Of a stretch of 64,000 bases of DNA, positions 21,401-60,774 are shown one piece after another (the first letter of the stretch is position 1; every line of letters starts with the position of its first letter). This stretch comes from Thermoplasmatota archaeon (GTDB lineage Archaea > Thermoplasmatota > Penumbrarchaeia > JASLWR01). The notes beneath the pieces are model-generated. The model was not told the origin of the DNA. It ran no database searches and was given only the letters and a program-made list of their open reading frames with translations. A program made the position numbers and the translations under genes. The stretch lies in assembly GCA_030740765.1 (NCBI GenBank), contig JASLWR010000004.1, positions 24,873 to 88,872 of the forward strand. The letters are read 5' to 3'.

Positions 21401-24347
21401 CTTTCCGGTGGGGGTGCCCGTAGATGTCATGGTGAAAGGTTATGCGTCAATGGCCGATAATAATGAACACGAAAACGAAACCTTAGGTCTCTTTACCGTT
21501 AAGAACGAGGTTGCTTTCTTTGGAACGCCGGTGGCAAAAAACAGTACTGGGGACGTGATCCCCTCCGGTGGTTACTGCAAGGGGGGTGACGTGATCACTC
21601 TAACCGGTATAAAGGTTGTTTACAGTGGAACCGAGGACAAATACCCGCCTGACGAGCAATTTGACGTCAACGTCTGGGGTGATGGTGGTGACGACCATTG
21701 GGTGGACATGGTTTCATCTGGAGAGGAGATATCCATCGAAGCCACAATGCCTAATAGTGGTATGAATAATTATTCCTTCAAATTTAACCTGTCAGGTCCT
21801 GCCAGGGCTAATTCGGATCCGGTGGCGTTTTATTACGTGAAAATAGATAATGTCACGCCTCGTCTTTCGAATCCTTTCCCAGAAGAGGGGATGTGGTTTA
21901 ACAGCACCAATGTGAAGTGTAGTATCAATATCAACGACACCGAACAATCCGACGACCTGAGCGTGGTAAAATGCTCATACTCCATTGATGGCAACCAAAC
22001 CTGGTCCAATTGGGTGAATGTGGATTCGATCGTTGATGGTGTGGCGGAAAAGACCCTGACCCTTGCTCAGGGAAAGGTGAATCTCGTGAAGTGGAATGCC
22101 TGGGACCGTTTGGGTAATGGACCCATCGAGTTCGGCCCCACCCCCGTATGGATCGATAGCGAAGGTGTGGAGTTCAGTGATTTTGAACCTTTAGGCAAGA
22201 TCGAGGATCTTATGCCCACATGCACGATCAATGTCTCAGATAGCTTGTCAGGGGTCGGCGATCAGGTATGGGTGCGACAATCAACCAATGGTGGAAATAC
22301 ATGGGATGACTGGACTCAACCGGAAAAAACACCAAACGACGATGGATTCGGACTTTCATACCGAGCCACTTTGCAGGAAGGAAGTGGCAACCGCATCCAG
22401 TGGAAAGTTGAGGATGTCGCGGGAAATGTGAATACCAGCGAATTCAAAATAACCGTGGATACGGAGTTCACCATCCCCGAGGTGGAACTGACCTTTCCGG
22501 GGAACGGGACCAACACGAGTTTGAGGCCCAAGCTGGAGTGGAGCCTGGCCAAAGGGGGTGCAGGAGTGAACTTCAAACTGTTCCTTTCGCTAACGGCTGA
22601 TATAGATACCGATGCCGATACACCGAGAACCGAGACCGAGAACCTATCATATACATTTGACGAGGATATTGCCGATATGACCACCTATTACTGGTCGGTA
22701 ATTCCGGTCAAGGACAACGACGTGGGTATCTGTAAAAGCGGGGTCTGGTCATTTACGGCCATGGAGGGGACTCTACCCGAGCTAAAACTGCAATCACCAG
22801 GGGATTCGGACAAGGCAGAAATCCGTCCCACATTGAGATGGGATTTGACCAGGGCAAAGGAGGGCGTTAAGTATCGTGTCTATGTAAGCAATAACAGTGT
22901 TATCGATACAACAAACGTGTCAGGAGCGAAAAAGATCTTGGATGACAAATCGTATGAATTTGTGGAAGATCTGGTGGATGGCGAGACATATTACTGGATA
23001 GTGATTCCCTTTATTACGGAAGGGGGGATCGACTCTGATGGAAGTTGCCTAAGTGGGGTCTGGTCCTTTATTATAGATGCGAACTTCACCATAAAATGGG
23101 AATTTGATATTGCGGTGGAGCACGAAGCAAAGGATGCCGAGTTCGAGGTCGGGGATCACATGAACTTAACCGTAATAATAACGAATTTGGGTAATTCCCT
23201 CGACATTTACAACCTCTCCATCAGCGAAGATTGGAACTACACCGCTATAGGCTCCCTCGATGTAGCTGACAACGCTACCGGCGACATCAAAATATCAATA
23301 GTACTGCCGCTGGACATCACTCTTGGAAATCACACTTTGGTTATTACCGTTACGTCAACCGGCAATAACACAATAGAGACCGAAATGGTTTCATATGCAA
23401 TAATACAGCCTGGAGGGGTGAATCCTCATGATGACACGAACGAGACGGGAGGAGGTTTCTTTTCGGATATCCCCATGCTCTGGATCATTATCGCCATCGT
23501 GGTGCTCTTCCTGATCATCGTGATAATCGTGATCATCGTTAGAAGACGGAACGATGACTGGGATGACGACGAGGACGACGACGATTACGATGACGAATAC
23601 GACGAGGACGAAGATGAAGAAGAGGAGGATTTCGGTCGTATTCGTAAGGATGGAGCCTCACCCATGCTGGCAACTGGCGCCCAGATGGAACCGTGTACCA
23701 ACACCAACTGCCGTAAACCCATCCCGACAAACACTATGTTCTGCACACATTGCGGAGTGAAACAGGGCCAGCAAGCCGAGACTCCTACAACCGCTTCGAA
23801 GCCGGTTGAAACTGAGATAGAGATCGAGGACCTGGATGTGGAAGAGGATTCGGCCGTTACCCTGGATGAGCTTATGAACCGAGCTTCCCAGTTAATAGAC
23901 ACTCCCAAAAAGGAGGAGCCCGTAACGGAAACTGTTGACGAGCCGGATATAGAGGTCGTTGGCGAGGTAAAGGAAGATAAAGGACTTACTATCGATGATG
24001 TTACCTCCGTGGACCAGCTACTGGACATCATGGTAGTGGAGAGCGAGCCATTCGATGATGACGATGAAGACATTATCGAGGTCGTTGCCACCGCGCCCTT
24101 GGAGGAAGATGACGATGAAGCTTTACCATTACCCACGGTCTCCGCTGCCTCGCTTTACGAGGAGGACGACGACGAGGATCTGGCAGCACCCGAACCCATT
24201 CTTTCCATAGAGGATGTGATGATGGAGATCGCCGGGGAGCCTGACCTTGATGAACCCCCGGAACCGGATCGCGCACCTCCGGGCCTAGCGCCTCCGGCTC
24301 ATGCACCACCGGGTAATGCCCCGCCGCCTCCGCCTCCCCCGGAGTAG
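18468..24347 (+). CDS. Giant surface protein (1959 aa). Signal peptide, four tandem MAM-like ~150-aa repeats, ThuA/GATase1-like region, further beta-rich domains, one TM helix, poly-acidic stretch, Zn ribbon, acidic region, poly-proline C-terminus.
   Basis: Each repeat begins F(D/E)DxFExG and ends DDW(Y/F)IDN(V/I), with LNLDGSGDT in between. TM segment MLWIIIAIVVLFLIIVIIVIIV. Acidic stretch RRRNDDWDDDEDDDDYDDEYDEDEDEEEED. Zn ribbon CTNTNCRKPIPTNTMFCTHCG. C-terminus PPGNAPPPPPPPE. SD-like aggtgg lies 10 nt upstream. Confidence 0.85.
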   Translation: MRKIMLFTVILLLMAPLNVFFTAHRSSFVSDTGFGSNDGNSKLHVQSGGRDATANPFDSVFFDDFESGFTNWTHSGVQINQEANNELSPVNAANLDGNGDTLTSNAIDLRGYGFGHLEYGVQPGGGSDPPEVGDDLTAWMNLQTIGWHRVNISKGTGNPRPDFLTVNVALPKTAFHAGFQIRFTTPAIEANADDWYIDNVRVSASEGSNLFFDDFPPNPPDNAKWPVSLGTPVVNTNAQAIPSTGNSLNLDGSGDTLQSGTINLGRVSEAYIFYFWEQGDGSNGNRDEPENMDNLKIEYYIDDPAPLWLEVEVTSQERGGDPGRAFFMLSTFSLPWDALHDNFKFRLHTPQGDNNLDDWFIDDIGLNAAPSYSVPFEDNFDDGQLAAAKWPGGDRKGSPQVNTRGANEPSLTYSLNLDGSGDTVVSEKIDTSWAPWASLTYWWQQGGGGDEPEANDDLIVEINVSSGWRVLKKHLGATAGTNTFTMEEFVLPQDAIYDKFRVKFSTTQGQNSKDDWFIDNVSVRKGKVENPSDKFQDFFESGNLLSNWEILEGNPQINADGQNEPSPSSSLNLDGEGDMISSGGLNLGQAATAVLSFDWQQKGGGDDPENGDDLYADILLMKTGWFNIFQAKGVDQANNFYTNFSFVLPQTALHGNFKVRFRVGSAEGVGKDDWFIDNVLIKGKDGMGFKRVGIYNEYSNKEKEGINPAKALSSQFTDYKLYLFDDYRYAAENLSSLDFFIICEQESLAAGKAGDIHNHWKNSMADLLNYTGRVVVLDGGSGNSRLLVSSFLSSTGHQNIPGNPNVDNDMPNHPISVGIPNIFAGPSEVARFTGVNGREVMTVNNNPVVVEKRYARGSVMLFGLDYSEWNSFTEKLLFNALNWSVINKIQVNKPTIAENDVYAGLPVMVSVDVSDTIGPEDVSKITLEFNDTGVSFEYEDGNVNKFGNNNGTVSLDSWHTGKKVENLTLNLNLTFGWDFPVGVPVDVMVKGYASMADNNEHENETLGLFTVKNEVAFFGTPVAKNSTGDVIPSGGYCKGGDVITLTGIKVVYSGTEDKYPPDEQFDVNVWGDGGDDHWVDMVSSGEEISIEATMPNSGMNNYSFKFNLSGPARANSDPVAFYYVKIDNVTPRLSNPFPEEGMWFNSTNVKCSININDTEQSDDLSVVKCSYSIDGNQTWSNWVNVDSIVDGVAEKTLTLAQGKVNLVKWNAWDRLGNGPIEFGPTPVWIDSEGVEFSDFEPLGKIEDLMPTCTINVSDSLSGVGDQVWVRQSTNGGNTWDDWTQPEKTPNDDGFGLSYRATLQEGSGNRIQWKVEDVAGNVNTSEFKITVDTEFTIPEVELTFPGNGTNTSLRPKLEWSLAKGGAGVNFKLFLSLTADIDTDADTPRTETENLSYTFDEDIADMTTYYWSVIPVKDNDVGICKSGVWSFTAMEGTLPELKLQSPGDSDKAEIRPTLRWDLTRAKEGVKYRVYVSNNSVIDTTNVSGAKKILDDKSYEFVEDLVDGETYYWIVIPFITEGGIDSDGSCLSGVWSFIIDANFTIKWEFDIAVEHEAKDAEFEVGDHMNLTVIITNLGNSLDIYNLSISEDWNYTAIGSLDVADNATGDIKISIVLPLDITLGNHTLVITVTSTGNNTIETEMVSYAIIQPGGVNPHDDTNETGGGFFSDIPMLWIIIAIVVLFLIIVIIVIIVRRRNDDWDDDEDDDDYDDEYDEDEDEEEEDFGRIRKDGASPMLATGAQMEPCTNTNCRKPIPTNTMFCTHCGVKQGQQAETPTTASKPVETEIEIEDLDVEEDSAVTLDELMNRASQLIDTPKKEEPVTETVDEPDIEVVGEVKEDKGLTIDDVTSVDQLLDIMVVESEPFDDDDEDIIEVVATAPLEEDDDEALPLPTVSAASLYEEDDDEDLAAPEPILSIEDVMMEIAGEPDLDEPPEPDRAPPGLAPPAHAPPGNAPPPPPPPE

Positions 24348-43891: not shown

Positions 43892-45433
43892 GTGTCATGG
43901 ATTAGCGGATATTATGGTGTAATTTTGGAAGAAAATTGGGGAATAAATCTACAAAAGAACGATATCATATCCGGTAAATGGGATTCCTATCTTCACCAGT
44001 GGGGGGAAGATCTGGAATCTATTGGGACCGAATGCATTGTCTCATTTGCCCCCCAAATGAACAACTTTTATATGCCATGGGGCGGACAGCCTGAAAGATT
44101 TAAAGATGCATGGGCCAGGGTAGTGGGAATCGTGGAATCGATTGGGAGTTATGCCGAATGGCTCTGGTTGGTATACCATGAGAATATACCGGAAGATATC
44201 GAAACCGCAGATTATTTCCCTGCGGATGGGTCAGTTGATATCGTCGGTACGTGGGGCCGGAACCTGGGAGACACCAAACCCTGGTACTCCTGGCAGGGAT
44301 TCAAGGAATTATTTTCAGAATCTCTCCTTGAATTGAATTCCACCGGGCTTCCCCAGATGGTTTTTGCCGGCTCTACATGGTTCGGTGGAGACAGAACACA
44401 ATGGTTCGGTGATCTGTTCTCGTGGCTGACCAATGAGCATCCGGAGGTTCAATACCTAATACTAATTGATCGCGAGGTAGATGGCTCGGACCTATATTTG
44501 ACCGAGGAACTCTTCAATACTCGTGAGTTCCAGGAAGGGCTTGGAATGTTTAGTGAAAACGGCCAGTATTATCTAGAAGAGATTATAAATAAGTCTACTT
44601 TTACCTGGCCAATTGGCGAATTTCTTATTTTACTTTCAGTAATCATTCTTGTGATGATATTTCTAGGGTTCACATATTTTCTATCAGGTCGTTCAAAAGG
44701 CAATAATGGAAAAAAGATTTACATTTCCATGAAACGTATTATCGAGGAGAACAAGGCCGAACCCATCCCGGATGTTCCGATTATAGACCGGGGATTCCAA
44801 AGTACAATTGATGGTATCTATCTGGCCGGTGAAATAACCGGAACGAATCTTCTCAGACCCTGTATGAAAGAAGGACTGGATGCCATACGGATAATCGCGA
44901 AAAGGATCAAAAAAGAGAACAAGGCGGGTAAAGAGAAAGTGGATAAGAAACAGAAAAAAAAGTTTGACGTTGCGATAATCGGGGGCGGTCCGGCGGGTCT
45001 GGTGGCGGGGATAGAGGCCAAGAAATTGGGACTTGATTATATTGTTCTAGAGAAGGAACATTGGGCCCAAAAAGTACGTCAATATGCTAAAGAAAAGGCA
45101 GTCACAGGAGAGCCCTACGCACTGGAACTGGATTCTCTTTTGGATTTCCCGGATACTGATAGGGAAGCTCTCTTGGAAATGTGGAACAGAGTCCTCAAAG
45201 TTAAAAATATAAATTTATGGGAAAGAGAAGAGACATTGATAGTAAAACGGGGTTTTAAGCTCATCACTGAAAAGGCGACGTATTCTGCAAAATATATTTT
45301 GATAACTGTGGGTGTATCGGGCCCTTTGAACCGTTTGGATGTAGTGGGTGAAGACCTCCCTCACGTACATAGATATCTACCAGAACCGGATAATTATGAG
45401 AATAAAAATATCCTGGTGGTAGGGGGGGGATAA
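43892..45433 (+). CDS. Multidomain membrane protein, upstream part of a frameshifted gene. Glycoside-hydrolase-like N-terminal domain, TM helix, then a pyridine-nucleotide-disulfide (TrxR-like) oxidoreductase domain interrupted at a G8 homopolymer.
   Basis: FAD fingerprint FDVAIIGGGPAGLVAG. The ORF ends ...NILVVGGG* inside the second dinucleotide motif, at a run of 8 G (45422-45429). Confidence 0.6.
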   Translation: MSWISGYYGVILEENWGINLQKNDIISGKWDSYLHQWGEDLESIGTECIVSFAPQMNNFYMPWGGQPERFKDAWARVVGIVESIGSYAEWLWLVYHENIPEDIETADYFPADGSVDIVGTWGRNLGDTKPWYSWQGFKELFSESLLELNSTGLPQMVFAGSTWFGGDRTQWFGDLFSWLTNEHPEVQYLILIDREVDGSDLYLTEELFNTREFQEGLGMFSENGQYYLEEIINKSTFTWPIGEFLILLSVIILVMIFLGFTYFLSGRSKGNNGKKIYISMKRIIEENKAEPIPDVPIIDRGFQSTIDGIYLAGEITGTNLLRPCMKEGLDAIRIIAKRIKKENKAGKEKVDKKQKKKFDVAIIGGGPAGLVAGIEAKKLGLDYIVLEKEHWAQKVRQYAKEKAVTGEPYALELDSLLDFPDTDREALLEMWNRVLKVKNINLWEREETLIVKRGFKLITEKATYSAKYILITVGVSGPLNRLDVVGEDLPHVHRYLPEPDNYENKNILVVGGG

Positions 45434-45452: not shown

Positions 45453-46877
45453 ATGTTCTCCAAGAAAAATAAGGTCACCATATCCTATAGAAGACCCTAT
45501 TTTACCAGATTGACAAGCATCAATCAGCGTAATATAGAAGAGCTTATAAAGAAGGGAAAAGTACGGGTAATATATGATTCGGTGATAAAAAAAATCGGAA
45601 GGGACAAGGTCATCCTTGAAATCAGGAACATCGGCAACAGAAAAATGAGGTACCACGATGTATTCCTGGAACTGGGTAGACGCCCGAATAAGGAGTTTCT
45701 CACGTCCATTGGTGTAAAGTTCGGGAGCGATCTTACGATAAAAGATAGGATGAGGACTGCATGGAAAAATAAAGTTATTAAGCGAGATGTTATTGGCGGG
45801 ATATTGTTATTTGTTTTCGCATTTTTATTTTACTTTTACATGAAGCGTAGCTCTTATACAAGCCTCCCGGCACCATCGATCGGAGGATATGAACTTTCAT
45901 TTTATTATATTACGATATATACGTTCGGTGTAATGGCGTTGGGTCTCTGGTTCGTTTATAGATTCAGAAAGGCAAGAAACAGGAAATTGATGTTTGTTAG
46001 GATGATATTCATAATGTTGATCCAGCTATCGGTGGGTTATGTTTTTGCGAATCCGTCAGCAAATCCCATTATGAGGCAGTGGACAGGTAATGATTTCTTT
46101 ACCTGGGAGGCTTATCAACTTTCAATTGTCTGGCCATTGGAACTGCAGCCTCTTGTATGGAACTGGTTGGAAATGTCATGGGTAAACTGGGAGTTCTATC
46201 TCGGTTGGGTTGTAATATTTTCTTTTATAGGTGTGCCTGTTGGAGCTTTTTTACTTGGCAAGGGGTTCTACTGTTCGGGAGTGTGCGGCTGCGGAGCCCT
46301 TGCGGAGACTGTTGGAGACCCTTTCAGGAGTAAATCACTTAAGAATAAATTCGCATACAGACTGGAATATTCAAAATATGTGATACTGGGAATCTCCGTG
46401 GTGCTCACCTTCATTATGATCGAGAACGAGATATTTGAGACGAATCCTCAAAGTCCATACTATCATGTTTCGTACCTCGTCTATTGGATATTTATTCTCG
46501 TGTTCTTATCATCGATCATTGGTGTAGGAACGTATCCGTTCCTGTCCGGAAGGACCTGGTGCAGATACTTCTGTCCCATGGCAGCGTTGTTGTCGATATT
46601 TTCCATGATAAGCCCAAACCGTATAGAAACCTATAAAGAGAGATGCATCGGGTGTAACAAGTGTAATGAGAACTGTCAATATGGGATTAACATCAAGGGC
46701 AAGGCACTGCTTGGTAAACCAGTTAGGACGCGGGAATGCGTTCAGTGCGGTGTATGTGAAGCAGTATGCCCGACAGATGCGTTAAGAGCCCAATTTACAA
46801 TATACAGGCGGAAAAAGGGGGTGGTTCCAAGTGAAAGTTCCTACAAACCGTACAGACATTTCGGGGGTTTGAGGTGA
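45453..46877 (+). CDS. Downstream part of the same gene: rest of the TrxR-like domain fused to a NapH/MauN-like polytopic membrane polyferredoxin
   Basis: In the +1 frame the sequence reads DNAIETAIMFSKKNKVTISYRR, continuing the NAD motif. About 6 TM helices. CSGVCGCG. Two 4Fe-4S motifs, CIGCNKCNENCQ and CVQCGVCEAVCP. Confidence 0.6.
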   Translation: MFSKKNKVTISYRRPYFTRLTSINQRNIEELIKKGKVRVIYDSVIKKIGRDKVILEIRNIGNRKMRYHDVFLELGRRPNKEFLTSIGVKFGSDLTIKDRMRTAWKNKVIKRDVIGGILLFVFAFLFYFYMKRSSYTSLPAPSIGGYELSFYYITIYTFGVMALGLWFVYRFRKARNRKLMFVRMIFIMLIQLSVGYVFANPSANPIMRQWTGNDFFTWEAYQLSIVWPLELQPLVWNWLEMSWVNWEFYLGWVVIFSFIGVPVGAFLLGKGFYCSGVCGCGALAETVGDPFRSKSLKNKFAYRLEYSKYVILGISVVLTFIMIENEIFETNPQSPYYHVSYLVYWIFILVFLSSIIGVGTYPFLSGRTWCRYFCPMAALLSIFSMISPNRIETYKERCIGCNKCNENCQYGINIKGKALLGKPVRTRECVQCGVCEAVCPTDALRAQFTIYRRKKGVVPSESSYKPYRHFGGLR

Positions 46878-47387: not shown

Positions 47388-47930
47388 ATGGACAGAATTT
47401 CATTTACTGAAGAAGAAATAAAGTACCTCACCGATTTTGTAAAAAGAGGTCGGAAAAGCGCAAGAGAATTGACCAGAGCCCGTATTTTGTTACTAATACA
47501 CGATGGCAAAACAGAGATGGAGATAAAAGAAATATTGCGTATCTGTAGGGCAACCGTTTCCAACACCAAGAAGAGATATCGTGAAGGAGGTCTTGAAATT
47601 GCTCTTTCGGAGAAGCCAAGATCTGGTCAGCCAAGAAAATACACCAATGTACATGAAGCCGAGATTATTGCGATGGCGTGTACAGACTCACCAAAAGGCC
47701 GTAAGAGATGGACCATTCGACTCTTGACTGAGCGAATGAAACGGCGGAAGTGCTTTAAGACACTCAACCGAGAAAGCGTTCGTCTAATTTTAAAAAAAGC
47801 AAAACTCGACCTTGGTCGAAAAGAATGTGGTGCATTTCAGAAATAAACCAGGAGTATCGAGAACGGATGTATGATATTCTTGAGTTGTATGAAAAAACTA
47901 GGTTTTTATGAGAATTCAAACACCCCACCA
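47388..47930 (+). mobile_element. IS630-family transposase remnant: N-terminal HTH region, frameshift, short continuation, then truncation (no DDE domain)
   Basis: Typical IS630 N-terminus ARILLLIHDGKTEMEIKEILRICRATVSNTKKRYREGGLEIALSEKPRSGQPRKYT...RKRWTIRLL. After the stop at 47846, another frame reads EYRERMYDILELYEKTRFL*, which matches the IS630 MEDVLxxYE region. Confidence 0.65.
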
Positions 47931-48033: not shown

Positions 48034-49062
48034 GTGTTTTTATATAAAAATATGATATTTGAAAAAATGACAGGTCTTACTCATAGGGTAAGGGAAATAT
48101 TCGTGGAACGTAGATATTGTCAATGGTGTGAAGCTCGACAGAAAGTCGAGGTTCGGAGCTTGACGATGTTCGCGGAATCGCAGCCCAGAGGGACCGATTC
48201 CGCTGAATTCTATAAATGGAGCTTTTTTTTTCTTTCTGCAGTTATCCTCGTTACGATCTGTTTAATATTAGTTACGAGTGATATCGAAAATAATACTGAT
48301 GAATTTGAGATCGAGAATTCTATCCTTTCTACCGACGAGCCTGTTATCATAGGTACCCGGGCCGATGAGAGCTGTCCGGCCGGCGGTTCCGTGAATGGTG
48401 ACCAGGAATACTCTTGCGGGAGTTCCTGCCACGATGTACAAAGCGCTTCGAAAGTGATTTTGAGTACATCCTACCAGGCCATGTCACCAGGAGAGACCAT
48501 TACTGTTACAGTAAGAATAACTGGTGCGGAAGCCCAGAGTTCCTCTGTGGGAGTGTTTCTGGTAACAAGCCTGTCGTCCGAAGAGAGCCACCCTGGGGAA
48601 GGCGGATGGGAAATTTTATCGGACCCCAGCGGTTCGACGAATTTTAATTACTATCTGAAAGATGCAGTTTATGGCGGGGGGGCCTGGACATGGACCCTCA
48701 AGGCTCCAGCGAATCCGGGGACGTATTACCTTTATGCAAGGGAACACCATGGAAACGGGCAGAAATATTGGCAGGAAAACACAAATGGGCTGAAATTCGA
48801 TGTTATCGAGACGGAAGGTTCCGGCTCAGGATGGTTGCCTTTGATCTATGTGTTCACGGGTCTCATCATAAGTTTCTTCGTTATCTTGATAATTAAAACA
48901 ATACGGAAACGCGACTCATCAAAAAAGGGTGGGACAAAAGATTTCCAGGATGTTTACGAAGACGGCGAAACGATGATCGAATGTCCCAAATGCGCCTGCT
49001 CGTTAAAGGCAAAGAACCGGAATCGACATAAGAGAAGGTGCACAATTCGCGGGCGGATTTGA
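48034..49062 (+). CDS. Membrane protein: N-terminal TM anchor, ~170-aa extracytoplasmic domain, second TM helix, basic cytoplasmic tail with C-terminal zinc ribbon
   Basis: TM1 FFFLSAVILVTICLILV. TM2 WLPLIYVFTGLIISFFVILII. C-terminus IECPKCACSLKAKNRNRHKRRC. The track start is an alternative GTG; a likely ATG is at 48052. Confidence 0.6.
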   Translation: MFLYKNMIFEKMTGLTHRVREIFVERRYCQWCEARQKVEVRSLTMFAESQPRGTDSAEFYKWSFFFLSAVILVTICLILVTSDIENNTDEFEIENSILSTDEPVIIGTRADESCPAGGSVNGDQEYSCGSSCHDVQSASKVILSTSYQAMSPGETITVTVRITGAEAQSSSVGVFLVTSLSSEESHPGEGGWEILSDPSGSTNFNYYLKDAVYGGGAWTWTLKAPANPGTYYLYAREHHGNGQKYWQENTNGLKFDVIETEGSGSGWLPLIYVFTGLIISFFVILIIKTIRKRDSSKKGGTKDFQDVYEDGETMIECPKCACSLKAKNRNRHKRRCTIRGRI

Positions 49063-49885: not shown

Positions 49886-50494
49886 GTGTTGGCCTGGTTA
49901 GAAACGATAATGCAATGGTTCTCCGAGGAAGATGTCGGTGGCGACCGAATCATTGATGAAAAATGGCAAATGCTTGAATTGAACGGAGATCCCTCCCGTT
50001 TTGCGGTTTCCAACGAGAATCTTCCCTTTGAGATTGGAATCTATATCAATGAGGAGTTTGCCCATCTGATGGTGTTCACCAATCTCGAGACAGCGGATTG
50101 GTATGTGAAGGACCAGCGCAATATATATTACGATCTCCTGGTCCAGAACAACAAGAACCTTTTCGTCAAGTATTATCTTTCCGGAGAGAATGATACGGTG
50201 GCACTCCGGACAGAACTCGATCTTGCCTATCTCAACAAGAGAGAGTTCAACGATGCCCTCCAGGCCGTTATTGTAGGCACCATGTGGCTTATGAAGAAAA
50301 TGGGGCTTTTGGATGAGAAATCCTGTGAGGTTGGATCCGACAACGAAACCTCGGACAAGATAATGAAGATGCTCGATAAGGGTATTTCCAAGCACGAGAT
50401 CATAAATTCTCTGATAAAAGACTGTGGCATGAATCCCGAAGAAGCAACCGAGAAGGTATTCGCCCTTGCCAAGAACGGGAATAATTCAAGCTAG
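49886..50494 (+). CDS. Hypothetical cytoplasmic protein (202 aa)
   Basis: Clean ORF with no recognisable motif; possibly YbjN-like, but this is not supported by any specific motif. Confidence 0.45.
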   Translation: MLAWLETIMQWFSEEDVGGDRIIDEKWQMLELNGDPSRFAVSNENLPFEIGIYINEEFAHLMVFTNLETADWYVKDQRNIYYDLLVQNNKNLFVKYYLSGENDTVALRTELDLAYLNKREFNDALQAVIVGTMWLMKKMGLLDEKSCEVGSDNETSDKIMKMLDKGISKHEIINSLIKDCGMNPEEATEKVFALAKNGNNSS

Positions 50495-50577
50495 ATCTCT
50501 GATTTTTGGGGATGAACTTTAAATAACATGGCAAAATGGTTCCAAATCCTTAATATAATTATGAAAACCATATTCAT

Positions 50578-52434
50578 ATGGATAATATGGGATCATTTCG
50601 CACACCCATCTCGGTAACGATATTTATCATTATTATAATGGGCCCCCTGGTCATTTTATTGGCCCCGGGGGCAAGTGCTGCGGTTGCAAAGGTCACCATC
50701 TCGATGAATTCACCCACGTCCAAAGTAGCGGAGATGGGATACGGGGAGAAGACCGAAGTGGATTTCACAGGCAAGCTCACGACAGCAGTTGGAAACAACG
50801 GGATAGTAATCACGCTGGAAACCGTCGCAACTGTTCCGGAATATGTCTCAGTGGAATTTCGTCCGTCAGTTATAACCGTTTCAGAGCCCGGTACTCAGAC
50901 TTCGGTATTTTCCGTTCTTGTAACTGTGGGGCACGAGATCGAAGGCGGAACTCCTTTCGCAATTGGCATCCGAGGGAAATGGCATAGTGAAGGTAGTACT
51001 ACCCTATTCAACACGAATACCGAGCACGTTGAACTCAATCCAACAATATATTACGGGATCGAGGTTACCCCTCGAACGCTTATAAAATCGGGACCCAGGG
51101 GCGATTCTCTCATTTTTCCAGTTGCCGTTGAGAGTCTATCCAATACCGATTTCGATTATTCGGTGGGTTTGGACCACTTGACCTATGATGCATATGGCGC
51201 CATGCATTTGCTTGAACATGCGTCCCATCCTGATGGCTTGATCTCCATCTTGCAGCAGAGATCGACACTGCCGAGGCTATCCACAGACACAGTGGAACTT
51301 ACGGTGGATGGGGACAAATATCGGGATGAATGGAGTGTCCTCGAAATAGTTCTTAACCTCTCCATAATGGGAACTGATATTATCGAACATTTCTCCCTCC
51401 ATTCCCAGTCTGTCGGTAGTAATTTTGTATTATTTGTTCCCGGGACTAGCTTCCTGGTGGCCCAGGTTGCTTCATTTGGGATAATGGATCTTGAAGATAT
51501 GACTCTCCCTGAAAGCTGGAACCCGGGAAGCAATTGGGTGATTGAACACAGCATGGGATCTCCTGGTGACGGAAGAAGTTATTCTCTAACGTTGGGAGTA
51601 TTGCTAATAGGTGCGGAGAAAGAGCTTACACTGGAGAGCGAAATTCCTAACGGTTTCGTATTTACACTCGAGCCAAACTCACTTGAGCTGGGCCACCTCG
51701 AACTTGGATTCTTCAATATCACAATTACAAGAGATGCTACGAGCGGAGGGGGTATGTCCGGATCCAATGAGCTTGTCACCATTATCCCCACCGCTCCCGA
51801 TTCCCATTCAACCAAGGTCTTCGTGGTGGTCCCACCCCTCGCTAAAGTTGAACCAGACGGCTTGTCAAACCTTGAGCTTGGGGCTATAGCAGGCGGGATA
51901 TTCATTCTTACCATTCTGGGATTAGGGAAGATGGAGTTATCGAGATATCATCTCTATTGGCTGTTCTTTATTCCCCTTTACACGTATATCCATGAGGAGA
52001 ACGCGTTGGATCATTTCACCCGCGGCAGGATCTACCAGTATATCAAGGACAATCCCGGTGCATATTACTCGAAAATAAAGAAAGAATTGGGGCTGAACAA
52101 CGGCGTGGTGTCTTACCATCTTCAAACATTGAAACGAGTTGAACTGATAAAGTCTAGGAGATCGGGGATACGAAAGATGTTCTTCATCACTGGGTCTCCT
52201 TTGCCGAAAGAAATTAGTGCGAAACTCAACTTTATGGAAACCTCCATAAGGTCGCTGGTCTCGGAGAATCCGGGTATCACACACAAGGAGATCGGGGCGA
52301 ACTTTCCCGACAAGAGCAGCAGGACCATCTCCCATTACGTAAAAAAACTTTCGAGAAAGGATTATATCTATCTTGTTAAGGAAGGGAAATACTCCCGGTG
52401 TTATCCGAAGGAAAAACCGATTCCATCTGGATAA
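50578..52434 (+). CDS. Membrane-anchored transcription regulator: signal peptide, ~430-aa ectodomain, TM helix, two cytoplasmic winged-HTH (ArsR/MarR-like) domains
   Basis: TM segment LGAIAGGIFILTILGL. wHTH 1 RGRIYQYIKDNPGAYYSKIKKELGLNNGVVSYHLQTLKRVELIKSRR. wHTH 2 IRSLVSENPGITHKEIGANFPDKSSRTISHYVKKLSRKDYIY. Confidence 0.7.
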   Translation: MDNMGSFRTPISVTIFIIIIMGPLVILLAPGASAAVAKVTISMNSPTSKVAEMGYGEKTEVDFTGKLTTAVGNNGIVITLETVATVPEYVSVEFRPSVITVSEPGTQTSVFSVLVTVGHEIEGGTPFAIGIRGKWHSEGSTTLFNTNTEHVELNPTIYYGIEVTPRTLIKSGPRGDSLIFPVAVESLSNTDFDYSVGLDHLTYDAYGAMHLLEHASHPDGLISILQQRSTLPRLSTDTVELTVDGDKYRDEWSVLEIVLNLSIMGTDIIEHFSLHSQSVGSNFVLFVPGTSFLVAQVASFGIMDLEDMTLPESWNPGSNWVIEHSMGSPGDGRSYSLTLGVLLIGAEKELTLESEIPNGFVFTLEPNSLELGHLELGFFNITITRDATSGGGMSGSNELVTIIPTAPDSHSTKVFVVVPPLAKVEPDGLSNLELGAIAGGIFILTILGLGKMELSRYHLYWLFFIPLYTYIHEENALDHFTRGRIYQYIKDNPGAYYSKIKKELGLNNGVVSYHLQTLKRVELIKSRRSGIRKMFFITGSPLPKEISAKLNFMETSIRSLVSENPGITHKEIGANFPDKSSRTISHYVKKLSRKDYIYLVKEGKYSRCYPKEKPIPSG

Positions 52435-52446
52435 AACACTGCAAGA

Positions 52447-55400
52447 TCAATCGAGAATTATGTGCCCATCCCCTTGAGGTACCATCTCAGTTGCCCGGAA
52501 ACCTACCTCCTCTGCCAAACTCTCCAGTTCCAGGTCTCCCAGGATCACTGGTTCTACCTGATCCAGTGCTTCAGGGGTGCCGATGGATATTAGAGCCTTC
52601 AGCGCAGCCCTACGATCTTCCATCTCCACCGAACTTTTCAACATCTTAACAAGAGAGGGAACAACCCGTTCGTCTTTCATTTCTCCGAGTACTTTCAATA
52701 CTATCGGCCGCGTTCCCTTTGGTACCGTGAAAAGAACGTTCGCCAGGGCCGGAGCCGTGTAGCTGTTTGCGATATGCTTCAACCTGCTAAGCGTGACCTC
52801 TGCCTCCCCCCTAGACTGGTACATTAGATTGTCAAGGTTGGGTTTAGTAATGTGCTCGAACACACATTCCTTTAAGGGAGAGCGGGCAATACGCTGTAAC
52901 AGGAACCATTTTATGTCATGGTCGTAAAGATCGCTCAATAGCACTTTTGATCTCGTAGATATGCAGGCACTGGATATTACTTTCCCGGGAATAGTATTAT
53001 CAAAGAACGAATCCAAATCCGTATCCGATACAAATTTTTTAACATATTTCGGTTCCATCTCCACCAACATCATGACCAACCCCTTGAAGGTGTTGACAGA
53101 CCTTTTTCCAGGGAGGATGATCTCACTTTTTTTCTCTGCAAACTGCCTGAGAATTTCTTTAACTGAAATGGTGGAACTTACTGCCAGTCTCCATTGCTGC
53201 TCCATGTGATCAGTTCTATTGTCGTTTGAGCCGGTACTGGCTTTTCCCGCCGGCGATCTTTCAGGTATGACTACCCGTTTTTCAGAATTGGACTTTTTCA
53301 CTCCTGGCATTTCCAGAAGTAGCTTCATATAAACTGACAAGACCCTTGCAGCGGTGACAGGATGATTGCTCGCTTCGGCCAAAAGCCCCAGGGGTCGCTC
53401 CATCAATATCTCGTGTATTTCGCGAGATGTTGTGAAGCGTATGTTGTGGGAGACAACGTTTCTCATCTTTAGAAAACCACCCTTCACCGCCACCTCGGAC
53501 AGCCTATAAACGTCGGAATCCTTTAAAATGTCGTAGAGTTTCCTCTTATGCATGCCTAAGTCCTTGGCAATATCCTCAAGAAGCAGTTCCTTTTCCACCT
53601 TTTTTCCCATTGACTCCTTATAAAGGTCCGCATAACGTCCGGGCCTTATCATTGCGTCGGTGATATGTTTGATTATCGTCCTGTCAGGGAGATTCCTTCG
53701 AACATCCTTTGAGGGGTATTTTTTGATCTTGATATCTGAAATTATCTCGTCTTTCTCTCCTGGGCTCTTCATTGTCCCCTTCTTGACTTTCCCCCCCGGC
53801 GATCCGAAGGCTGCCGTATTCTCCCGGGTGATGAGGTTCCCACTTTTCGGATGTGCGAGAATGGTGATCTCAGGTAACTGCTCAGGTAAGGATGAAGGGA
53901 GCTCGATCCTTATGGGGATATCATTTTTGCCCGGCTCCAGCCGAAATCCCTCTATGATGTTAATTTCCCCATATGCCTTTGAAGAGGGCCAGTGAACCCT
54001 GTACTCTTTTCCGGGCAGAATTACGGTAAAATCCACTAATACGTCCTTTTTCGCATCACAGTTGGCCGTGACGGGTATCTCAAGGAGCGTCCCTTCTGCT
54101 CCCTCAGCTTGATCATAATCAAGATCTAACTGAATGTTTTTTCGAAATTCTGCAACTGTCTTCCGGACCTTCATATTCTTTTTGTAATCCCCCAGAAATC
54201 TCAGGGTCTCATTAAGTATCCTGGTGTGGTTATTGATGTTGTTACGAAACCCGTCTCGCAACCATTTGCATGCCTTTTCCAACCTGTTCTCTTGTGACCT
54301 CATCACACGACCAAGTGTGGAAAAGAACAGATATAGATGAAGATAAGCCATATTGAAATTGTATATGTGGGCCGCCAATCCCTCTGGCTTCATCTTGCCC
54401 GGCAAGGAAAAATCACGAATACCCCGTGATACCTTATTCATAAAATACACTGACATGAGACCGAATACCATTGGATAGATTTTCTTGTAATCAGGAACAT
54501 ACTCAGGGCCGCCTGATTCCATTTTTTCTAAAATTTTATCTTTCAATATCCCCGAATCTAGCTGCCTAATGAAAAAATCCATGTCTTTATTGAAGAATGA
54601 AGTGTAATCCAGGTCCAGTTGTTTGATCCTCTCTGTTGCCATCTCAGTATTTTTCACAGACCTGTTGCTTTTTTTTATTCTATCATCGTAAGGGGCAAAG
54701 TGTTCGATCAGGTTTGACGAATCACCATCGCCTATCTTACAGTTTTTCATTATTCTTTTCACAAGATTGTCCATTACAAAGGCATCGGACTTTGCCTTTT
54801 TCGCAAACACCAGCCTTTTCTTGCCCTTGGGCATGCTTTCGACCCTTTTCTTTAATGCTCTTGTGTAACCTTTAATTAAATTCGATGTATAACGGCCGGG
54901 TGTTTCCAATTCTGGTCCGTTTTTACCCAGAGCTTGCAAGGAAGAAGTGTCCTCCATATATGAGCTTATAATGCTTTCAACGAGGAACGTCACTCGGCTG
55001 ATATTCTTTGCATGCTCCTCAAGATAATTTCTGTCGAATCCCATGTTCGCCGCCGTTCTAGCGAGGACAGTAGAATTTAATTTATTCATTTCGTCCGGTT
55101 CAATCAGCACCTTTCCAAGGTGCAAGTTCAAATAAGTACCATTATTCAGCTTGAGAGTAGTAAAATCCTTCTCATTTACGGCTTCAGCCACCTTTTCTCC
55201 ATAGAACAGGTAATTTCCGATTTCCCTTTTAAGGTCCGCCGATAGTCCACTAGCAATCTTCTTGGGAATAATTTCCTTTTCAAGTTTTACCGAAAACTGC
55301 CGGGCCCCCTTTATCAAGAACATGTACGGAAGCCTGAAAACGCTTAGGGGAGTCTTTTCCAGATCGATGTATATTTCAAAGCTTACGTTGACATACCCCG

Positions 55401-56703
55401 AAGGCATTTTATCATCAAGGCGTATCACCCACTCCACTTCTCCCCTTTCTTGAGCTTCCTCCCGGTTTACGTCCAAAACTTCCACCGAAGTGCCCACCCC
55501 CTTTCCTTTTATCGTTTCTGCGGTGATTCTCGCAGTAAATTTCTCATCAATCAACCGGCCTCCGGTCTTGTAAAGGGCGATAAGGTGTACGGATTCTCCG
55601 GGACAATAAGAATATTTATCCGTTGTGGCACCGAAAAATTCGATATCCATGCCGCCTGTTACCTCGATAGCGCCTTTCTCCGTTGCCTCAACATCACCAG
55701 ATATCTCAAAAAATAGCTCATAACTACCTTGGAGTAATTCTTGTGTATCCTCAACGAGAAATTGGTATTCTTTCGGAACAATTTCTCTAGCAGAGTTTGG
55801 CTCCAATGTTATTTTACCCAATGGGATCGAACATATGTCGTTATCGTTTTTTCGAAAGTGAAGTCTTGTTGAAAGATCGAGTATTTCGATGCCTGTGTTA
55901 CTGATCCCCGCCGTGACCGTCAACATGCCACCCGGGAGAATCGAACGGGGACTGATATCAAGCATTGAGAGTGAAATATCATATTTACTCGCAATGAAAA
56001 AAACATTTTCAAAACATTTTGAAGTTTTAACGCTGTAATGACATAGAAATATCTCAACCCCCATTTCACCCTTTTCTTCGATATCTGAGATATTCGCCAG
56101 AAATGTTTCCGTATGCTCTCCCGAAAAAGTTACTCTTTTTTTATCGAAATGATGTAACTTCTTGCCGTTTACATCGAAAATATTACCCCAAATATCGACC
56201 GAACTCTCTTTTCCGGAAGCCTCGAGGATGATATTCATCTCTGCAGGCTTACCCGGTATTACTCTGTAATTGTTAGCCTCAACCCCTTTGATAGAGATAT
56301 CTGGCGGAGTGTATGAGAAAGTTTTTAACATTTCGGGAAGGATCGATGTGTAGTAAACGCCATGTTTCAGAATAACCTTCAACTCGTGCTCATCGGTATC
56401 GGAGAACGTTGGCTCCAGACTCATCCTATGTTTGAATTCCTTCGTTTCTGGTACTACGATATATTTTTCGATCGATTTTACCGGGCCAACACAACTGATC
56501 TCAATTTTTTGTGTAACTTCGTTTTCAGGAAGAGACAATAAAATATCGATGGTGATGGGTTCTCCCGGAGATCCCGTTGAAAGTTTCACATCCCCCGTAA
56601 TTTCAGGTTTTGCGCTCTTCGTGAAAATATCCAGGTTGATTACAATTTCTTCGGCCCCTTTTCCCTTTCGCATGACCTCATTCCCTTTTACCCTAAATAT
56701 CAC
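52447..56703 (-). CDS. Giant cytoplasmic protein (1418 aa) with C-terminal HEAT / PBS-lyase-like repeats and an internal HTH-like segment; function unknown
   Basis: HEAT-like repeats LGEMKDERVVPSLVKMLKSSVEMEDRRAALKALISIGTPEAL. No TM segment or signal peptide. Convergent with the upstream wHTH regulator gene. Confidence 0.7.
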   Translation of the reverse strand: MIFRVKGNEVMRKGKGAEEIVINLDIFTKSAKPEITGDVKLSTGSPGEPITIDILLSLPENEVTQKIEISCVGPVKSIEKYIVVPETKEFKHRMSLEPTFSDTDEHELKVILKHGVYYTSILPEMLKTFSYTPPDISIKGVEANNYRVIPGKPAEMNIILEASGKESSVDIWGNIFDVNGKKLHHFDKKRVTFSGEHTETFLANISDIEEKGEMGVEIFLCHYSVKTSKCFENVFFIASKYDISLSMLDISPRSILPGGMLTVTAGISNTGIEILDLSTRLHFRKNDNDICSIPLGKITLEPNSAREIVPKEYQFLVEDTQELLQGSYELFFEISGDVEATEKGAIEVTGGMDIEFFGATTDKYSYCPGESVHLIALYKTGGRLIDEKFTARITAETIKGKGVGTSVEVLDVNREEAQERGEVEWVIRLDDKMPSGYVNVSFEIYIDLEKTPLSVFRLPYMFLIKGARQFSVKLEKEIIPKKIASGLSADLKREIGNYLFYGEKVAEAVNEKDFTTLKLNNGTYLNLHLGKVLIEPDEMNKLNSTVLARTAANMGFDRNYLEEHAKNISRVTFLVESIISSYMEDTSSLQALGKNGPELETPGRYTSNLIKGYTRALKKRVESMPKGKKRLVFAKKAKSDAFVMDNLVKRIMKNCKIGDGDSSNLIEHFAPYDDRIKKSNRSVKNTEMATERIKQLDLDYTSFFNKDMDFFIRQLDSGILKDKILEKMESGGPEYVPDYKKIYPMVFGLMSVYFMNKVSRGIRDFSLPGKMKPEGLAAHIYNFNMAYLHLYLFFSTLGRVMRSQENRLEKACKWLRDGFRNNINNHTRILNETLRFLGDYKKNMKVRKTVAEFRKNIQLDLDYDQAEGAEGTLLEIPVTANCDAKKDVLVDFTVILPGKEYRVHWPSSKAYGEINIIEGFRLEPGKNDIPIRIELPSSLPEQLPEITILAHPKSGNLITRENTAAFGSPGGKVKKGTMKSPGEKDEIISDIKIKKYPSKDVRRNLPDRTIIKHITDAMIRPGRYADLYKESMGKKVEKELLLEDIAKDLGMHKRKLYDILKDSDVYRLSEVAVKGGFLKMRNVVSHNIRFTTSREIHEILMERPLGLLAEASNHPVTAARVLSVYMKLLLEMPGVKKSNSEKRVVIPERSPAGKASTGSNDNRTDHMEQQWRLAVSSTISVKEILRQFAEKKSEIILPGKRSVNTFKGLVMMLVEMEPKYVKKFVSDTDLDSFFDNTIPGKVISSACISTRSKVLLSDLYDHDIKWFLLQRIARSPLKECVFEHITKPNLDNLMYQSRGEAEVTLSRLKHIANSYTAPALANVLFTVPKGTRPIVLKVLGEMKDERVVPSLVKMLKSSVEMEDRRAALKALISIGTPEALDQVEPVILGDLELESLAEEVGFRATEMVPQGDGHIILD

Positions 56704-58737: not shown

Positions 58738-60774
58738 ATGGACGAAGCCCAAAACGATACTGAATCCGATGACGGGTATGAAGAAGACATCCCAGCACCG
58801 AGACGAAGAGATTATATTCCATCCATCGCGATGGCGCTGATATTCTGTGTTGCTATCATCCTGGGATTGGCTCTTTCTCCCATATATACCTCCCAGGGAA
58901 TGAAGGCTTTCAAAAACGAGGATGCGGTTGTCAATCCCCTGCTCTATATTATTTTTATCATTGTGTTTACTATAATAGTCCTCTTCGTGGTCAAGAAGGG
59001 TAAACGGAGCTGGATCAAGTATTTTTTTCTGGGAGCTATCTTTTTTACCATCATAAACGTCGTCTCTCCGGTACTGGACGGAGCGGTTTATGGTGTGGGC
59101 GAGGATTGGGAAAAGAAGACCTATGGGGATGAATTGGCTGCCTGGGATAAATCGGTTTTTGGCGGAAACGAATACGATTTCGCCATTCATGCGGACGGAC
59201 GTTTTGCAGTTTACGAGGATGAAAGTGAAATATTCTCGTATCAAGTGGGTAACCCGGTGGATGACCACGCCGATATCACTGTTTTTTCGTTATCATCCAA
59301 TAATCGTGATGATGCCGTCGCGGTAGCTGTCAAAGGGGCCGGTATCCACCTGTTCACCATTGAAAATTCGGATAAGATCCTACATCGTTTTTCGGCTCCC
59401 GGAAACGTTTCAACTTACCTTTTCGATACCTTGAATAACGATAATTTCGAGTTTACTTCTTGTGTAATTGATAATTCGGGGAACAATCCAACAATAAACT
59501 TGACGTCAATGAACCTGGGATACGATCCCAACGGTACCGTCGTAATTGGCCCGCATTATTATTACGAATATTCACTGGAGAACATAACGAACTCTGACGG
59601 AAAACAGATCCGGATCGGTGGAGAAAACCTCACCACGGCCGTATTGATCCCTGGGAAGAACCATGGGTTGAGGATCTGTCTCTCGGTTAATACCTTGAGT
59701 TACTTATTTAGCCTCCCGGGCCTTGACAATTGCTCCACCGTGAAATTTCCCTCACCCCTTGGATCAACGTACATTCTTGGCGATGGAGGACAAAATGAGC
59801 TGGTTCTATACAATCGTGATAAGTTCGAGGTCTTTTCATTAAGCGATAACGCCGTTGTTTCCATAGCAAAGAAGGTGATGGATGAAAAAATTGATGATCT
59901 GGTAGTTGCAAAAGGGATAAAGGGAGACGACACGGAAGCCGTTTACGTGCTGTCCAATGGTAGGATTCATCTGTTCGGTCCTGATGATTGGAAGGAGGGA
60001 TATGGTTATACCGAAGAAAAGCAGAAAGGGGCAAGCAGACTTTCGGTAAGCGACGCGGATGGTGACGGTCACATAGAGCTGAACCTGCTGTCTGGTAATG
60101 TTGTTCGACAATATGAGATATCCCCGGTGGAAAGGCACATCTGGGTTTGGGCCGTCGGTACTGTGGCAGCTTTGGCCCTGGTGGGAGCCATCCGCTTTCA
60201 CCCCGAGTGGTACGTGGTGGACGGGGTTGGAATCCTGGTGGCAGTTGGAGCCATAGCTCTGATCGGGATATCCCTGGCAATTCTCCCCTCTCTGGTTCTC
60301 CTGGTGATACTCGCCGTGTATGACGCCATATCCGTTTACAAAACAAAACACATGATCGATCTTGCTGACGGCGTTATGGAAATGAGGCTTCCCGTATTAC
60401 TTGTGATACCAAAGGACGGCAATTATTCATTCAGGAAACAAAAAAAATTGACCGAAGAGCTGGATAGCGGCGAGCCCCGGGGCGCCATGTTCATGGGACT
60501 TGGAGATATAATAATTCCCGGTATTCTTATTGTTTCTGCTTTCACCTATCTTCCCGAAGGCGTCCTTTTCGGGATCAGCAAGGCCTTGGTGGTTGCGTTG
60601 GGAGCTTTGATAGGTGGCTTGGTGGGTTTTGTTGCATTGATGAGATTCGTGTTGAAGGGAAATCCCCAGGCAGGACTGCCACTCTTGAACGGCGGAACGA
60701 TACTCGGTTATCTGATATCTTATATGATCCTTTACGGTGATTTTGGTTTTGGTCTAACTTTCAGCCTTTTCTGA
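58738..60774 (+). CDS. Presenilin / signal-peptide-peptidase family intramembrane aspartyl protease with ~450-aa N-terminal extracytoplasmic domain
   Basis: Catalytic motifs LAVYDAISVY (YD) and MGLGDIIIPGILIV (GxGD) lie in polytopic C-terminal half. N-terminal TM segments, then a large domain with Ca-binding-like DADGDGH. Confidence 0.7.
   Translation: MDEAQNDTESDDGYEEDIPAPRRRDYIPSIAMALIFCVAIILGLALSPIYTSQGMKAFKNEDAVVNPLLYIIFIIVFTIIVLFVVKKGKRSWIKYFFLGAIFFTIINVVSPVLDGAVYGVGEDWEKKTYGDELAAWDKSVFGGNEYDFAIHADGRFAVYEDESEIFSYQVGNPVDDHADITVFSLSSNNRDDAVAVAVKGAGIHLFTIENSDKILHRFSAPGNVSTYLFDTLNNDNFEFTSCVIDNSGNNPTINLTSMNLGYDPNGTVVIGPHYYYEYSLENITNSDGKQIRIGGENLTTAVLIPGKNHGLRICLSVNTLSYLFSLPGLDNCSTVKFPSPLGSTYILGDGGQNELVLYNRDKFEVFSLSDNAVVSIAKKVMDEKIDDLVVAKGIKGDDTEAVYVLSNGRIHLFGPDDWKEGYGYTEEKQKGASRLSVSDADGDGHIELNLLSGNVVRQYEISPVERHIWVWAVGTVAALALVGAIRFHPEWYVVDGVGILVAVGAIALIGISLAILPSLVLLVILAVYDAISVYKTKHMIDLADGVMEMRLPVLLVIPKDGNYSFRKQKKLTEELDSGEPRGAMFMGLGDIIIPGILIVSAFTYLPEGVLFGISKALVVALGALIGGLVGFVALMRFVLKGNPQAGLPLLNGGTILGYLISYMILYGDFGFGLTFSLF

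Follow-up and report, generated by a model that had tools for sequence, protein, structure and literature searches.

We analysed a 64-kb window (the whole stretch of DNA considered here; contig JASLWR010000004.1, positions 24,873-88,872) from a marine Thermoplasmatota archaeon metagenome-assembled genome (MAG; GCA_030740765.1), focusing on an open reading frame (ORF) at 50578..52434 on the plus strand whose product combines a large ectodomain, a single transmembrane (TM) helix and two cytoplasmic winged helix-turn-helix (wHTH) domains, and which we interpret as a putative membrane-resident transcription regulator. As described in the initial annotation of this locus, the ORF encodes 618 amino acids (aa) in an uninterrupted frame, and it is 100% identical to a deposited 615-aa protein (NCBI, MAG-derived, 'helix-turn-helix domain-containing protein [Candidatus Thermoplasmatota archaeon]'). 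The real start codon is probably the ATG at 50587 (M4 of the ORF), giving 615 aa, because the start-codon position is kept in the upstream-region alignment of orthologous loci; residue numbers throughout nevertheless refer to the 618-aa ORF. Nine full-length orthologues (44-77% identical) were found in marine metagenomes including TARA. Identity among them is 62-92% in the cytoplasmic module versus 31-81% in the ectodomain, indicating that the tail is the more constrained part of the protein. A search of viral contigs for relatives found none, and a word-indexed homologue search restricted to the C-terminal part yielded few proteins, most of them short.

A Kyte-Doolittle (KD) scan identified only two membrane-class segments, at residues 11-29 and 432-450, both of which are present in all nine orthologues. 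The first is the hydrophobic region (KD 2.86) of a predicted Sec-type signal peptide (residues 4-34; 50587..50679, plus strand) for which cleavage is predicted between ASA and AVAKV, the AxA motif and the mature N-terminus VAKV being kept in all orthologues, so that the signal peptide proposed initially is borne out by both its hydrophobic region and its cleavage motif. The extracellular region had been given as ~430 aa; it is indeed large, but its mature part (residues 35-431) amounts to ~397 aa. The second segment is the TM helix (LELGAIAGGIFILTILGLG; 51871..51927, plus strand; KD 1.96 over 19 aa), within which falls the stretch LGAIAGGIFILTILGL singled out in the initial annotation; its position is kept in the orthologues and it is Gly-rich, with a small-xxx-small motif at G435xxxG439. 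An aromatic, interfacial juxtamembrane segment follows (residues 451-475, KMELSRYHLYWLFFIPLYTYIHEEN; 51928..52002, plus strand) and runs into helix 1 of the first winged helix (wHTH-1); in an AlphaFold2 (AF2) model of the C-terminal part, a single long helix at 441-491 joins the TM segment to this helix. A family alignment shows a family-wide juxtamembrane motif, TE.GKY....L..PLYTKIKK, in which the E is nearly invariant and the P invariant, and the window protein carries the pattern E..[KR]Y....L..PLY[TS].I as ELSRYHLYWLFFIPLYTYI just after the TM helix.

The ectodomain is acidic (isoelectric point (pI) 4.5; 19 K+R, 49 D+E) versus a basic cytoplasmic part (pI 9.8; 30 K+R, 15 D+E), and in 150 family representatives the flank preceding the TM helix carries on average a net charge of -1.2 and the flank following it one of +1.6. 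As the acidic side precedes the TM helix and the basic side follows it, the predicted topology is type-I single-pass, with the N-terminus outside and the C-terminus inside the cell. A second TM helix at 457-471 (YHLYWLFFIPLYTYI), which would place the winged helices outside, was considered and rejected, the mean KD being only ~1.0 over 15 aa. Across the wider family this stretch contains just 10-14 apolar residues with K/R on both sides, and is therefore neither long nor hydrophobic enough to cross the membrane and is better regarded as interfacial. By hydropathy and charge, then, the TM segment is present and the winged helices lie on the cytoplasmic side, as had been proposed.

A full-length AF2 model based on the orthologue alignment (predicted local distance difference test (pLDDT) score 77 overall, ~90 in the ectodomain) comprises, in order, an all-beta region at 39-418, the TM helix, the long helix and two winged-helix units. 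The modelled ectodomain consists of three immunoglobulin (Ig)-like beta-sandwiches at residues ~35-157, 158-289 and 290-420. The membrane-distal domain, D1 (residues 35-157; 50680..51048, plus strand; strands at 39-155, pLDDT ~88), is the best-kept part of the ectodomain, with 46-57% identity in distant orthologues versus 31-39% for D2 and D3 (residues 158-289 and 290-420; 51049..51837, plus strand), which together form a PapD/ASH/MSP/CARDB-like Ig-like stalk. Foldseek matches the ectodomain to integrin alpha thigh and calf regions with E ~1e-9 at 6-12% identity. Residues 14-185 score 26.4 bits against the choice-of-anchor T model (NF041740; cut-off 70), a weak resemblance of D1 only, and structure comparison revealed no recognisable small-ligand sensor domain in the ectodomain. 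The ectodomain of this orthologue group has ~10 detectable relatives and belongs to no Pfam family.

On the cytoplasmic side, wHTH-1 (residues 476-537; 52003..52188, plus strand) is an HTH_HVO_0163_N/ArsR-like domain with its recognition helix at 508-520 (NGVVSYHLQTLKR) and its wing at 524-537 (model pLDDT >95), after which a 14-residue linker leads to the second winged helix (wHTH-2). It scores 40.7 bits against PF24266 (HTH_HVO_0163_N; residues 481-536, cut-off 31, E 2.5e-10) and also exceeds the Pfam cut-offs for HTH_20 and HTH_24; its nearest solved chain is PDB 5duk, annotated as a 'putative DNA binding protein', at E 1.2e-4 for the single sequence and 6.5e-12 for a family profile. The MarR/ArsR-like wHTH-2 (residues 552-610; 52231..52407, plus strand; recognition helix 581-593, wing 597-610) gives just a weak DUF5697 match in Pfam when the window protein is searched alone; it adopts a three-helix (H-H-H) plus beta-wing fold in AF2 models, and its profile matches PDB chains of ArsR, AdcR, MarR and SlyA. 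When the C-terminal 179 aa were modelled from a 26-sequence family alignment, the result (pLDDT 90.8) contained two complete wHTH units, in keeping with the two ArsR/MarR-like units of the initial annotation. The cytoplasmic part has a single Cys (C608), wHTH-1 having none. Compared as one structure, the tandem unit finds its best fold matches among tandem winged-helix proteins, all at low TM-scores, the DNA-binding proteins TFIIIC tauB and RPC34 being among them. Recognition helices across the family alignment have variable exposed positions and fixed core positions, as expected for regulators with differing DNA specificities.

The architecture had been thought uncommon. A HMMER scan with residues 440-618 as query against 1.84 billion 50%-identity cluster representatives overturns this, as the TM plus tandem-wHTH module was detected in 4701 clusters at E<=1e-3 and in 1630 at E<=1e-10, thousands of which share the same C-terminal layout; the protein represents one orthologue group in a very large, catalogued archaeal family. 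The module match spans at least 170 residues in relatives and stops close to the C-terminus (median distance 7 residues over 160 locally matched proteins). Among the 150 best representatives, from which the remaining architecture statistics were drawn, a TM segment lies no more than 50 aa upstream of the PLY motif in 141, and more than 120 residues precede the module in 126; the median N-terminal region over all 150 is ~370 residues (10th-90th percentile ~44-924). An N-terminal hydrophobic segment was found in 77 of the 107 representatives with such an N-terminal region and a Met start, and PF24266 plus HTH_24 in all 64 long relatives scanned. Ectodomains of the scanned relatives include PKD, CARDB, Big_9, FG-GAP, He_PIG, CarboxypepD_reg, NPCBM_assoc and beta-helix types. 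One Thermoplasmata relative has a tail that is 49% identical and an ectodomain with undetectable similarity, from which it follows that the cassette has been recombined with, or has outlasted, many ectodomains. The short members consist of little beyond the TM segment and tandem wHTH, and some forms are soluble (P0187, P0191).

All relatives that could be named belong to the Thermoplasmata/Thermoplasmatota, and a profile search of genome contigs with a narrow alignment returned five loci, each assigned to these groups or to 'uncultured archaeon'. Database annotations of the relatives are generic ('predicted transcriptional regulator', 'MarR family transcriptional regulator'). HVO_0163, the namesake of PF24266, has been treated as an ArsR-type transcription factor, its sole mention being as an 'ArsR-type' protein whose level rises under hypochlorite stress (PMC10294847); we found no functional study of HVO_0163, COG3398, PF24266 or DUF8183 in the literature. 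Two family loci have unusual arrangements. One metagenome contig of 1.26 Mb carries a tandem pair of members, of 281 and 316 aa (L015 6107-7951), and elsewhere (L014 3853-7765) a 254-aa member overlaps a 191-aa ORF that itself follows an 870-aa PKD-rich ORF, an arrangement suggestive of a single large family gene disrupted by frameshifts.

Immediately upstream of the gene is a ~43-bp promoter/operator-like candidate element (50517..50559, plus strand) made up of two TATA-like boxes with conserved flanks, a distal box TTAAATAAYATGGCAAA and a proximal box TCCAAATCMTTAATATAAT (B recognition element (BRE)/TATA-like). It is near-invariant in five orthologous loci whose proteins are 44-77% identical, and present at L007 too despite a different upstream gene. 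Such near-invariance at ~45% protein identity marks it as a probable dedicated cis-regulatory element, and the placement of a TATA-like box ~32 nt upstream of the conserved ATG (50587) suggests that the mRNA is leaderless or nearly so. The element core has a single copy at each orthologous locus and no second copy anywhere in the 64-kb window, and loci of more distant family members lack it. A 15-mer scan of metagenomes gave at least 120 chance matches, none of those listed having the extended motif or the membrane-protein gene, the pattern being too short for that search, and the upstream region has no Rfam match that would point to an RNA element. The distal box is plausibly a regulator site, and we hypothesise that the element as a whole is the best candidate target of the protein's own winged helices, that is, that the gene may be autoregulated.

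The neighbourhood of the gene is variable. Directly upstream lies a DUF8183 gene (49886..50494, plus strand; 202 aa) with a weak YbjN-like N-terminal half. A DUF8183 gene precedes the orthologues at L001/L002, L003/L004 and L005/L006/L009, and not those at L007/L008, that is, in three of four lineages, and the DUF8183 protein of the window is 67% identical to the L003 copy, the corresponding membrane proteins being only 44% identical. Relatives of the DUF8183 protein also show a faint HTH_78 match, and no related solved structures were found for it. On the other side, 12 bp from the stop codon of the membrane-protein gene, ends a gene for a 1418-aa protein (52447..56703, minus strand), which is convergent and so not co-transcribed with it. 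This neighbour had been described as a HEAT-repeat protein and counted among the reasons for seeing a candidate regulator that responds to extracellular cues. It is a convergent 1418-aa neighbour as stated, but it lacks a signal peptide and any Pfam match over its first ~1300 residues, and HEAT-type matches are confined to residues 1332-1385. The gene adjoins only relatives at least 76% identical (L005, L006 and L009, with a 1393-aa homologue in L005) and is absent beside orthologues of 44-52% identity, leading us to reject a functional link. The proximity to surface-protein genes that had also been invoked is likewise unsupported, as the large surface-protein genes are >26 kb away.

Distant orthologous loci have a different set of genes downstream on the same strand, encoding Peptidase_S8, a ~770-aa TPR/HTH_Crp protein, a ~290-aa Zn-ribbon protein and a VWA protein. 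The secreted-type Peptidase_S8 (+Big_7) gene lies directly after the orthologue (L001 5963-8089, L003 11628-13643, L004 3000-5375), and in L004 the called S8 and membrane-wHTH genes overlap by 22 bases. This block was considered as a conserved downstream partner and rejected, having no homologue anywhere in the window. Further downstream in the window, at 6.3 kb, is a gene for a 678-aa presenilin/signal peptide peptidase (SPP) family protein (58738..60774, plus strand; PF06550, E 1e-68), in which the match is mainly to the C-terminal ~200 residues (best 471-663) and the long N-terminal region is largely without match. It is syntenic in L005, and its linkage to the membrane-protein gene extends no further than the window and relatives at least 76% identical, among which synteny is uninformative. 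Across more distant family loci (L010-L016) no family-wide conserved neighbourhood was found.

Several other features of the window were recorded. A 342-aa protein (48034-49062, plus strand) looks single-pass, with an N-terminal hydrophobic segment, a ~230-aa Ser/Gly-rich outer region, a TM segment LPLIYVFTGLIISFFVILII and a short basic tail bearing a CxxC...H...C zinc-ribbon-like motif, and has no Pfam match. Three tandem genes on the minus strand (4264-8751, 8879-13234 and 13391-17620) encode proteins of 1409-1495 aa that look like paralogues, each bearing one bacterial TSP3 repeat near residues 1050-1090, and are followed on the plus strand by a gene (18468-24347) for a 1959-aa protein with a Reelin subrepeat-B-like domain; no member of this cluster of giant, probably surface, proteins (4264-24347) has the TM plus tandem-wHTH cassette. 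Pyr_redox matches occur at the end of one ORF (43892-45433, plus strand) and the start of the next (45453-46877, plus strand), the latter running on into a polytopic Fer4 protein, so that the gene may be split or frameshifted. Finally, downstream of these ORFs, a 152-aa protein (47388-47846, plus strand) made of HTH_32/29/23 domains, often found at transposase N-termini, is possibly a mobile-element remnant.

We consider it somewhat probable that the protein is a membrane-resident type-I single-pass transmembrane transcription regulator. This keeps the architecture, topology and wHTH fold of the membrane-tethered one-component regulator envisaged in the initial annotation and drops its rarity and its links to neighbouring genes. 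A DNA-binding function is suggested by the resemblance of both domains to bona fide ArsR/MarR regulators and, indirectly, by the basic tail and the conserved promoter element; architecture, topology signals, fold, family membership, family size, modularity, the conserved promoter element and the DUF8183 neighbour are observed, whereas for DNA binding, the signal, dimerisation and the targets we infer the following scheme. After removal of the signal peptide, the three tandem Ig-like domains would project from the cell surface, where the ectodomain, chiefly D1, may engage a partner that is macromolecular or bound to a surface, and not a small molecule. Engagement would change the lateral association or orientation of the GxxxG-type TM and juxtamembrane helices, and the juxtamembrane helix could pass this change straight into helix 1 of wHTH-1. 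The tandem winged helices may act as a covalent pseudo-dimer whose DNA binding is altered while the protein is still in the membrane, as in regulators of the ToxR/CadC type, with the gene's own upstream element (50517-50559) as a candidate target for autoregulation.

A number of observations weigh against a regulatory role. The topology is predicted from hydropathy and charge rules; the NCBIfam model for ArsR/SmtB (NF033788, 32.3 bits for a cut-off of 55) and the other NCBIfam models stay below their cut-offs; the best fold matches, all with low TM-scores, include tandem winged-helix proteins that bind protein or RNA (ScpB, ESCRT-II, cullins, SelB); and the family ectodomains are of adhesin or stalk type (PKD, CARDB, FG-GAP, beta-helix, Ig-like) rather than classical sensors. 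In addition, no target genes are identifiable and neighbourhoods differ among family members, a regulon search for a second copy of the element core in the window or the loci returned only the gene's own promoter, and no experimental study of any family member was found in the literature. Part of this would fit a surface adhesin or receptor whose tandem-wHTH tail is an anchor or adaptor, coupling variable surface proteins to a shared cytoplasmic partner, non-specifically to the nucleoid, or to machinery for assembly or sorting, an explanation that we regard as possible though rather unlikely. One conserved tail shared by many unrelated adhesin-like ectodomains is reminiscent of shared sorting or anchoring modules, the fold matches to the protein-binding ScpB, ESCRT-II and cullins and the lack of a conserved target operon point the same way, and the Ig-like stalk recalls integrin legs and pilus/ASH arrays. 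However, in sequence both domains match genuine DNA-binding regulators of the ArsR/MarR kind, down to the pattern of the recognition helix, the tail is strongly basic (pI 9.8), and the near-minimal TM plus tandem-wHTH members and the soluble forms (P0187, P0191) suit regulators better.

If the protein does regulate transcription, it could also do so as a proteolytically released factor in the manner of Notch or SREBP, with the ectodomain shed by a surface protease, the TM segment cut by an intramembrane protease and the winged helices freed to act in the cytoplasm. A type-I topology and a Gly/Ala/Ser-rich TM segment are typical of intramembrane-protease substrates, and candidate proteases are encoded nearby, a Peptidase_S8 gene directly following on the same strand at three orthologous loci (L001, L003, L004) and the presenilin/SPP-family gene 6.3 kb downstream in the window. 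Yet the S8 gene is absent from the window, the SPP linkage is confined to the window and relatives at least 76% identical, helix-helix dimerisation explains the Gly-rich TM segment equally well, and prokaryotic membrane regulators need no release to reach DNA (PMC10269533), making this route decidedly improbable. A chimeric gene model or assembly, in which a secreted-protein gene has been fused to a small wHTH gene, deserves mention since MAG sequence can hold chimeric joins and some relatives are short fragments or frameshift-split (L014 3853-7765). The frame is uninterrupted and the same full-length layout is present in nine independent orthologues from different samples and in 141 of the 150 family representatives; this recurrence effectively refutes an artefact, the chance of which we judge to be negligible.

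Marine Thermoplasmatota are abundant, uncultured degraders of particles and polymers, and to our knowledge their signal transduction is essentially uncharted. Should the family couple adhesin-like surface domains directly to DNA-binding domains, it would be a main surface- and substrate-sensing route of these archaea, and the first class of membrane-resident regulators to combine a type-I (ectodomain-first) layout with a defined cassette. A more far-reaching proposal is that the TM plus tandem-wHTH cassette constitutes a major unrecognised archaeal signalling system in which interchangeable adhesin-like domains report contact with particles, polymers, cells or viruses to DNA, a prokaryotic analogue of integrin or Notch, possibly with proteolytic release, the promoter element then being the autoregulatory operator of this particular receptor; taken as a whole we think this unlikely. 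The single gene is ordinary within its family and of modest practical value, and the family as a whole is the worthwhile target. With the corrected start, the domain map, the topology model and the candidate operator at 50517-50559, DNA binding becomes testable in vitro.

The window protein is like ToxR, TcpP and CadC in uniting within one polypeptide a domain outside the cytoplasm, one TM helix and a winged helix inside. In ToxR and CadC an OmpR-type wHTH occupies the N-terminus and the periplasmic sensor is C-terminal (type II orientation). The window protein is reversed, with the signal peptide and ectodomain first and the DNA-binding part C-terminal, has no Trans_reg_C match, and differs further in its tandem ArsR/MarR-type pair and Ig-like stalk, placing it outside the ToxR/CadC type. 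It resembles the soluble ArsR/SmtB and MarR repressors (CzrA 1r1u, ArsR 6j05, AdcR 3tgn, MarR 3bpv) and PDB 5duk in fold and recognition-helix pattern; however, ArsR/SmtB and MarR repressors have ligand or metal sites and form homodimers in which each chain contributes one wHTH, whereas here two wHTH units are joined in one membrane-tethered chain. Given the sub-cut-off score and the lack of Cys in wHTH-1, it does not qualify as an ArsR/SmtB metalloregulator. Integrin alpha legs and Notch-type receptors are alike in their type-I topology and tandem beta-sandwich 'legs', and conceptually in coupling the surface to transcription, but the likeness is one of generic fold at 6-12% identity, with no sign of homology, heterodimerisation or proteolytic release. 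Among archaea, ArnR and ArnR1 of Sulfolobus acidocaldarius are likewise membrane-anchored HTH regulators, acting on the archaellum and pili (PMC13286277); ArnR differs in that its HTH is N-terminal, its TM segments are C-terminal and a large ectodomain is lacking, and no sequence relationship to ArnR/ArnR1 was detected in our analysis. The closest correspondence is with the PF24266 proteins, which have in common with the window protein the first winged helix, the tandem wHTH and the generic annotation, and to which it is assigned by its hidden Markov model score, its second C-terminal wHTH and its TM segment with juxtamembrane motif. More broadly, regulators that reside in the membrane are recognised as a class in both archaea and bacteria (PMC10269533). 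Transmembrane transcription regulators (TTRs) are defined by a predicted DNA-binding domain and at least one predicted TM region in one protein, and number ~4 per archaeal genome, almost none of them characterised (Demey et al. 2023, PMC10269533); they are thought to act on DNA from the membrane, release not being needed in prokaryotes (PMC10269533). With a PF24266 wHTH and a TM helix in the same chain, the window protein falls within this operational definition.

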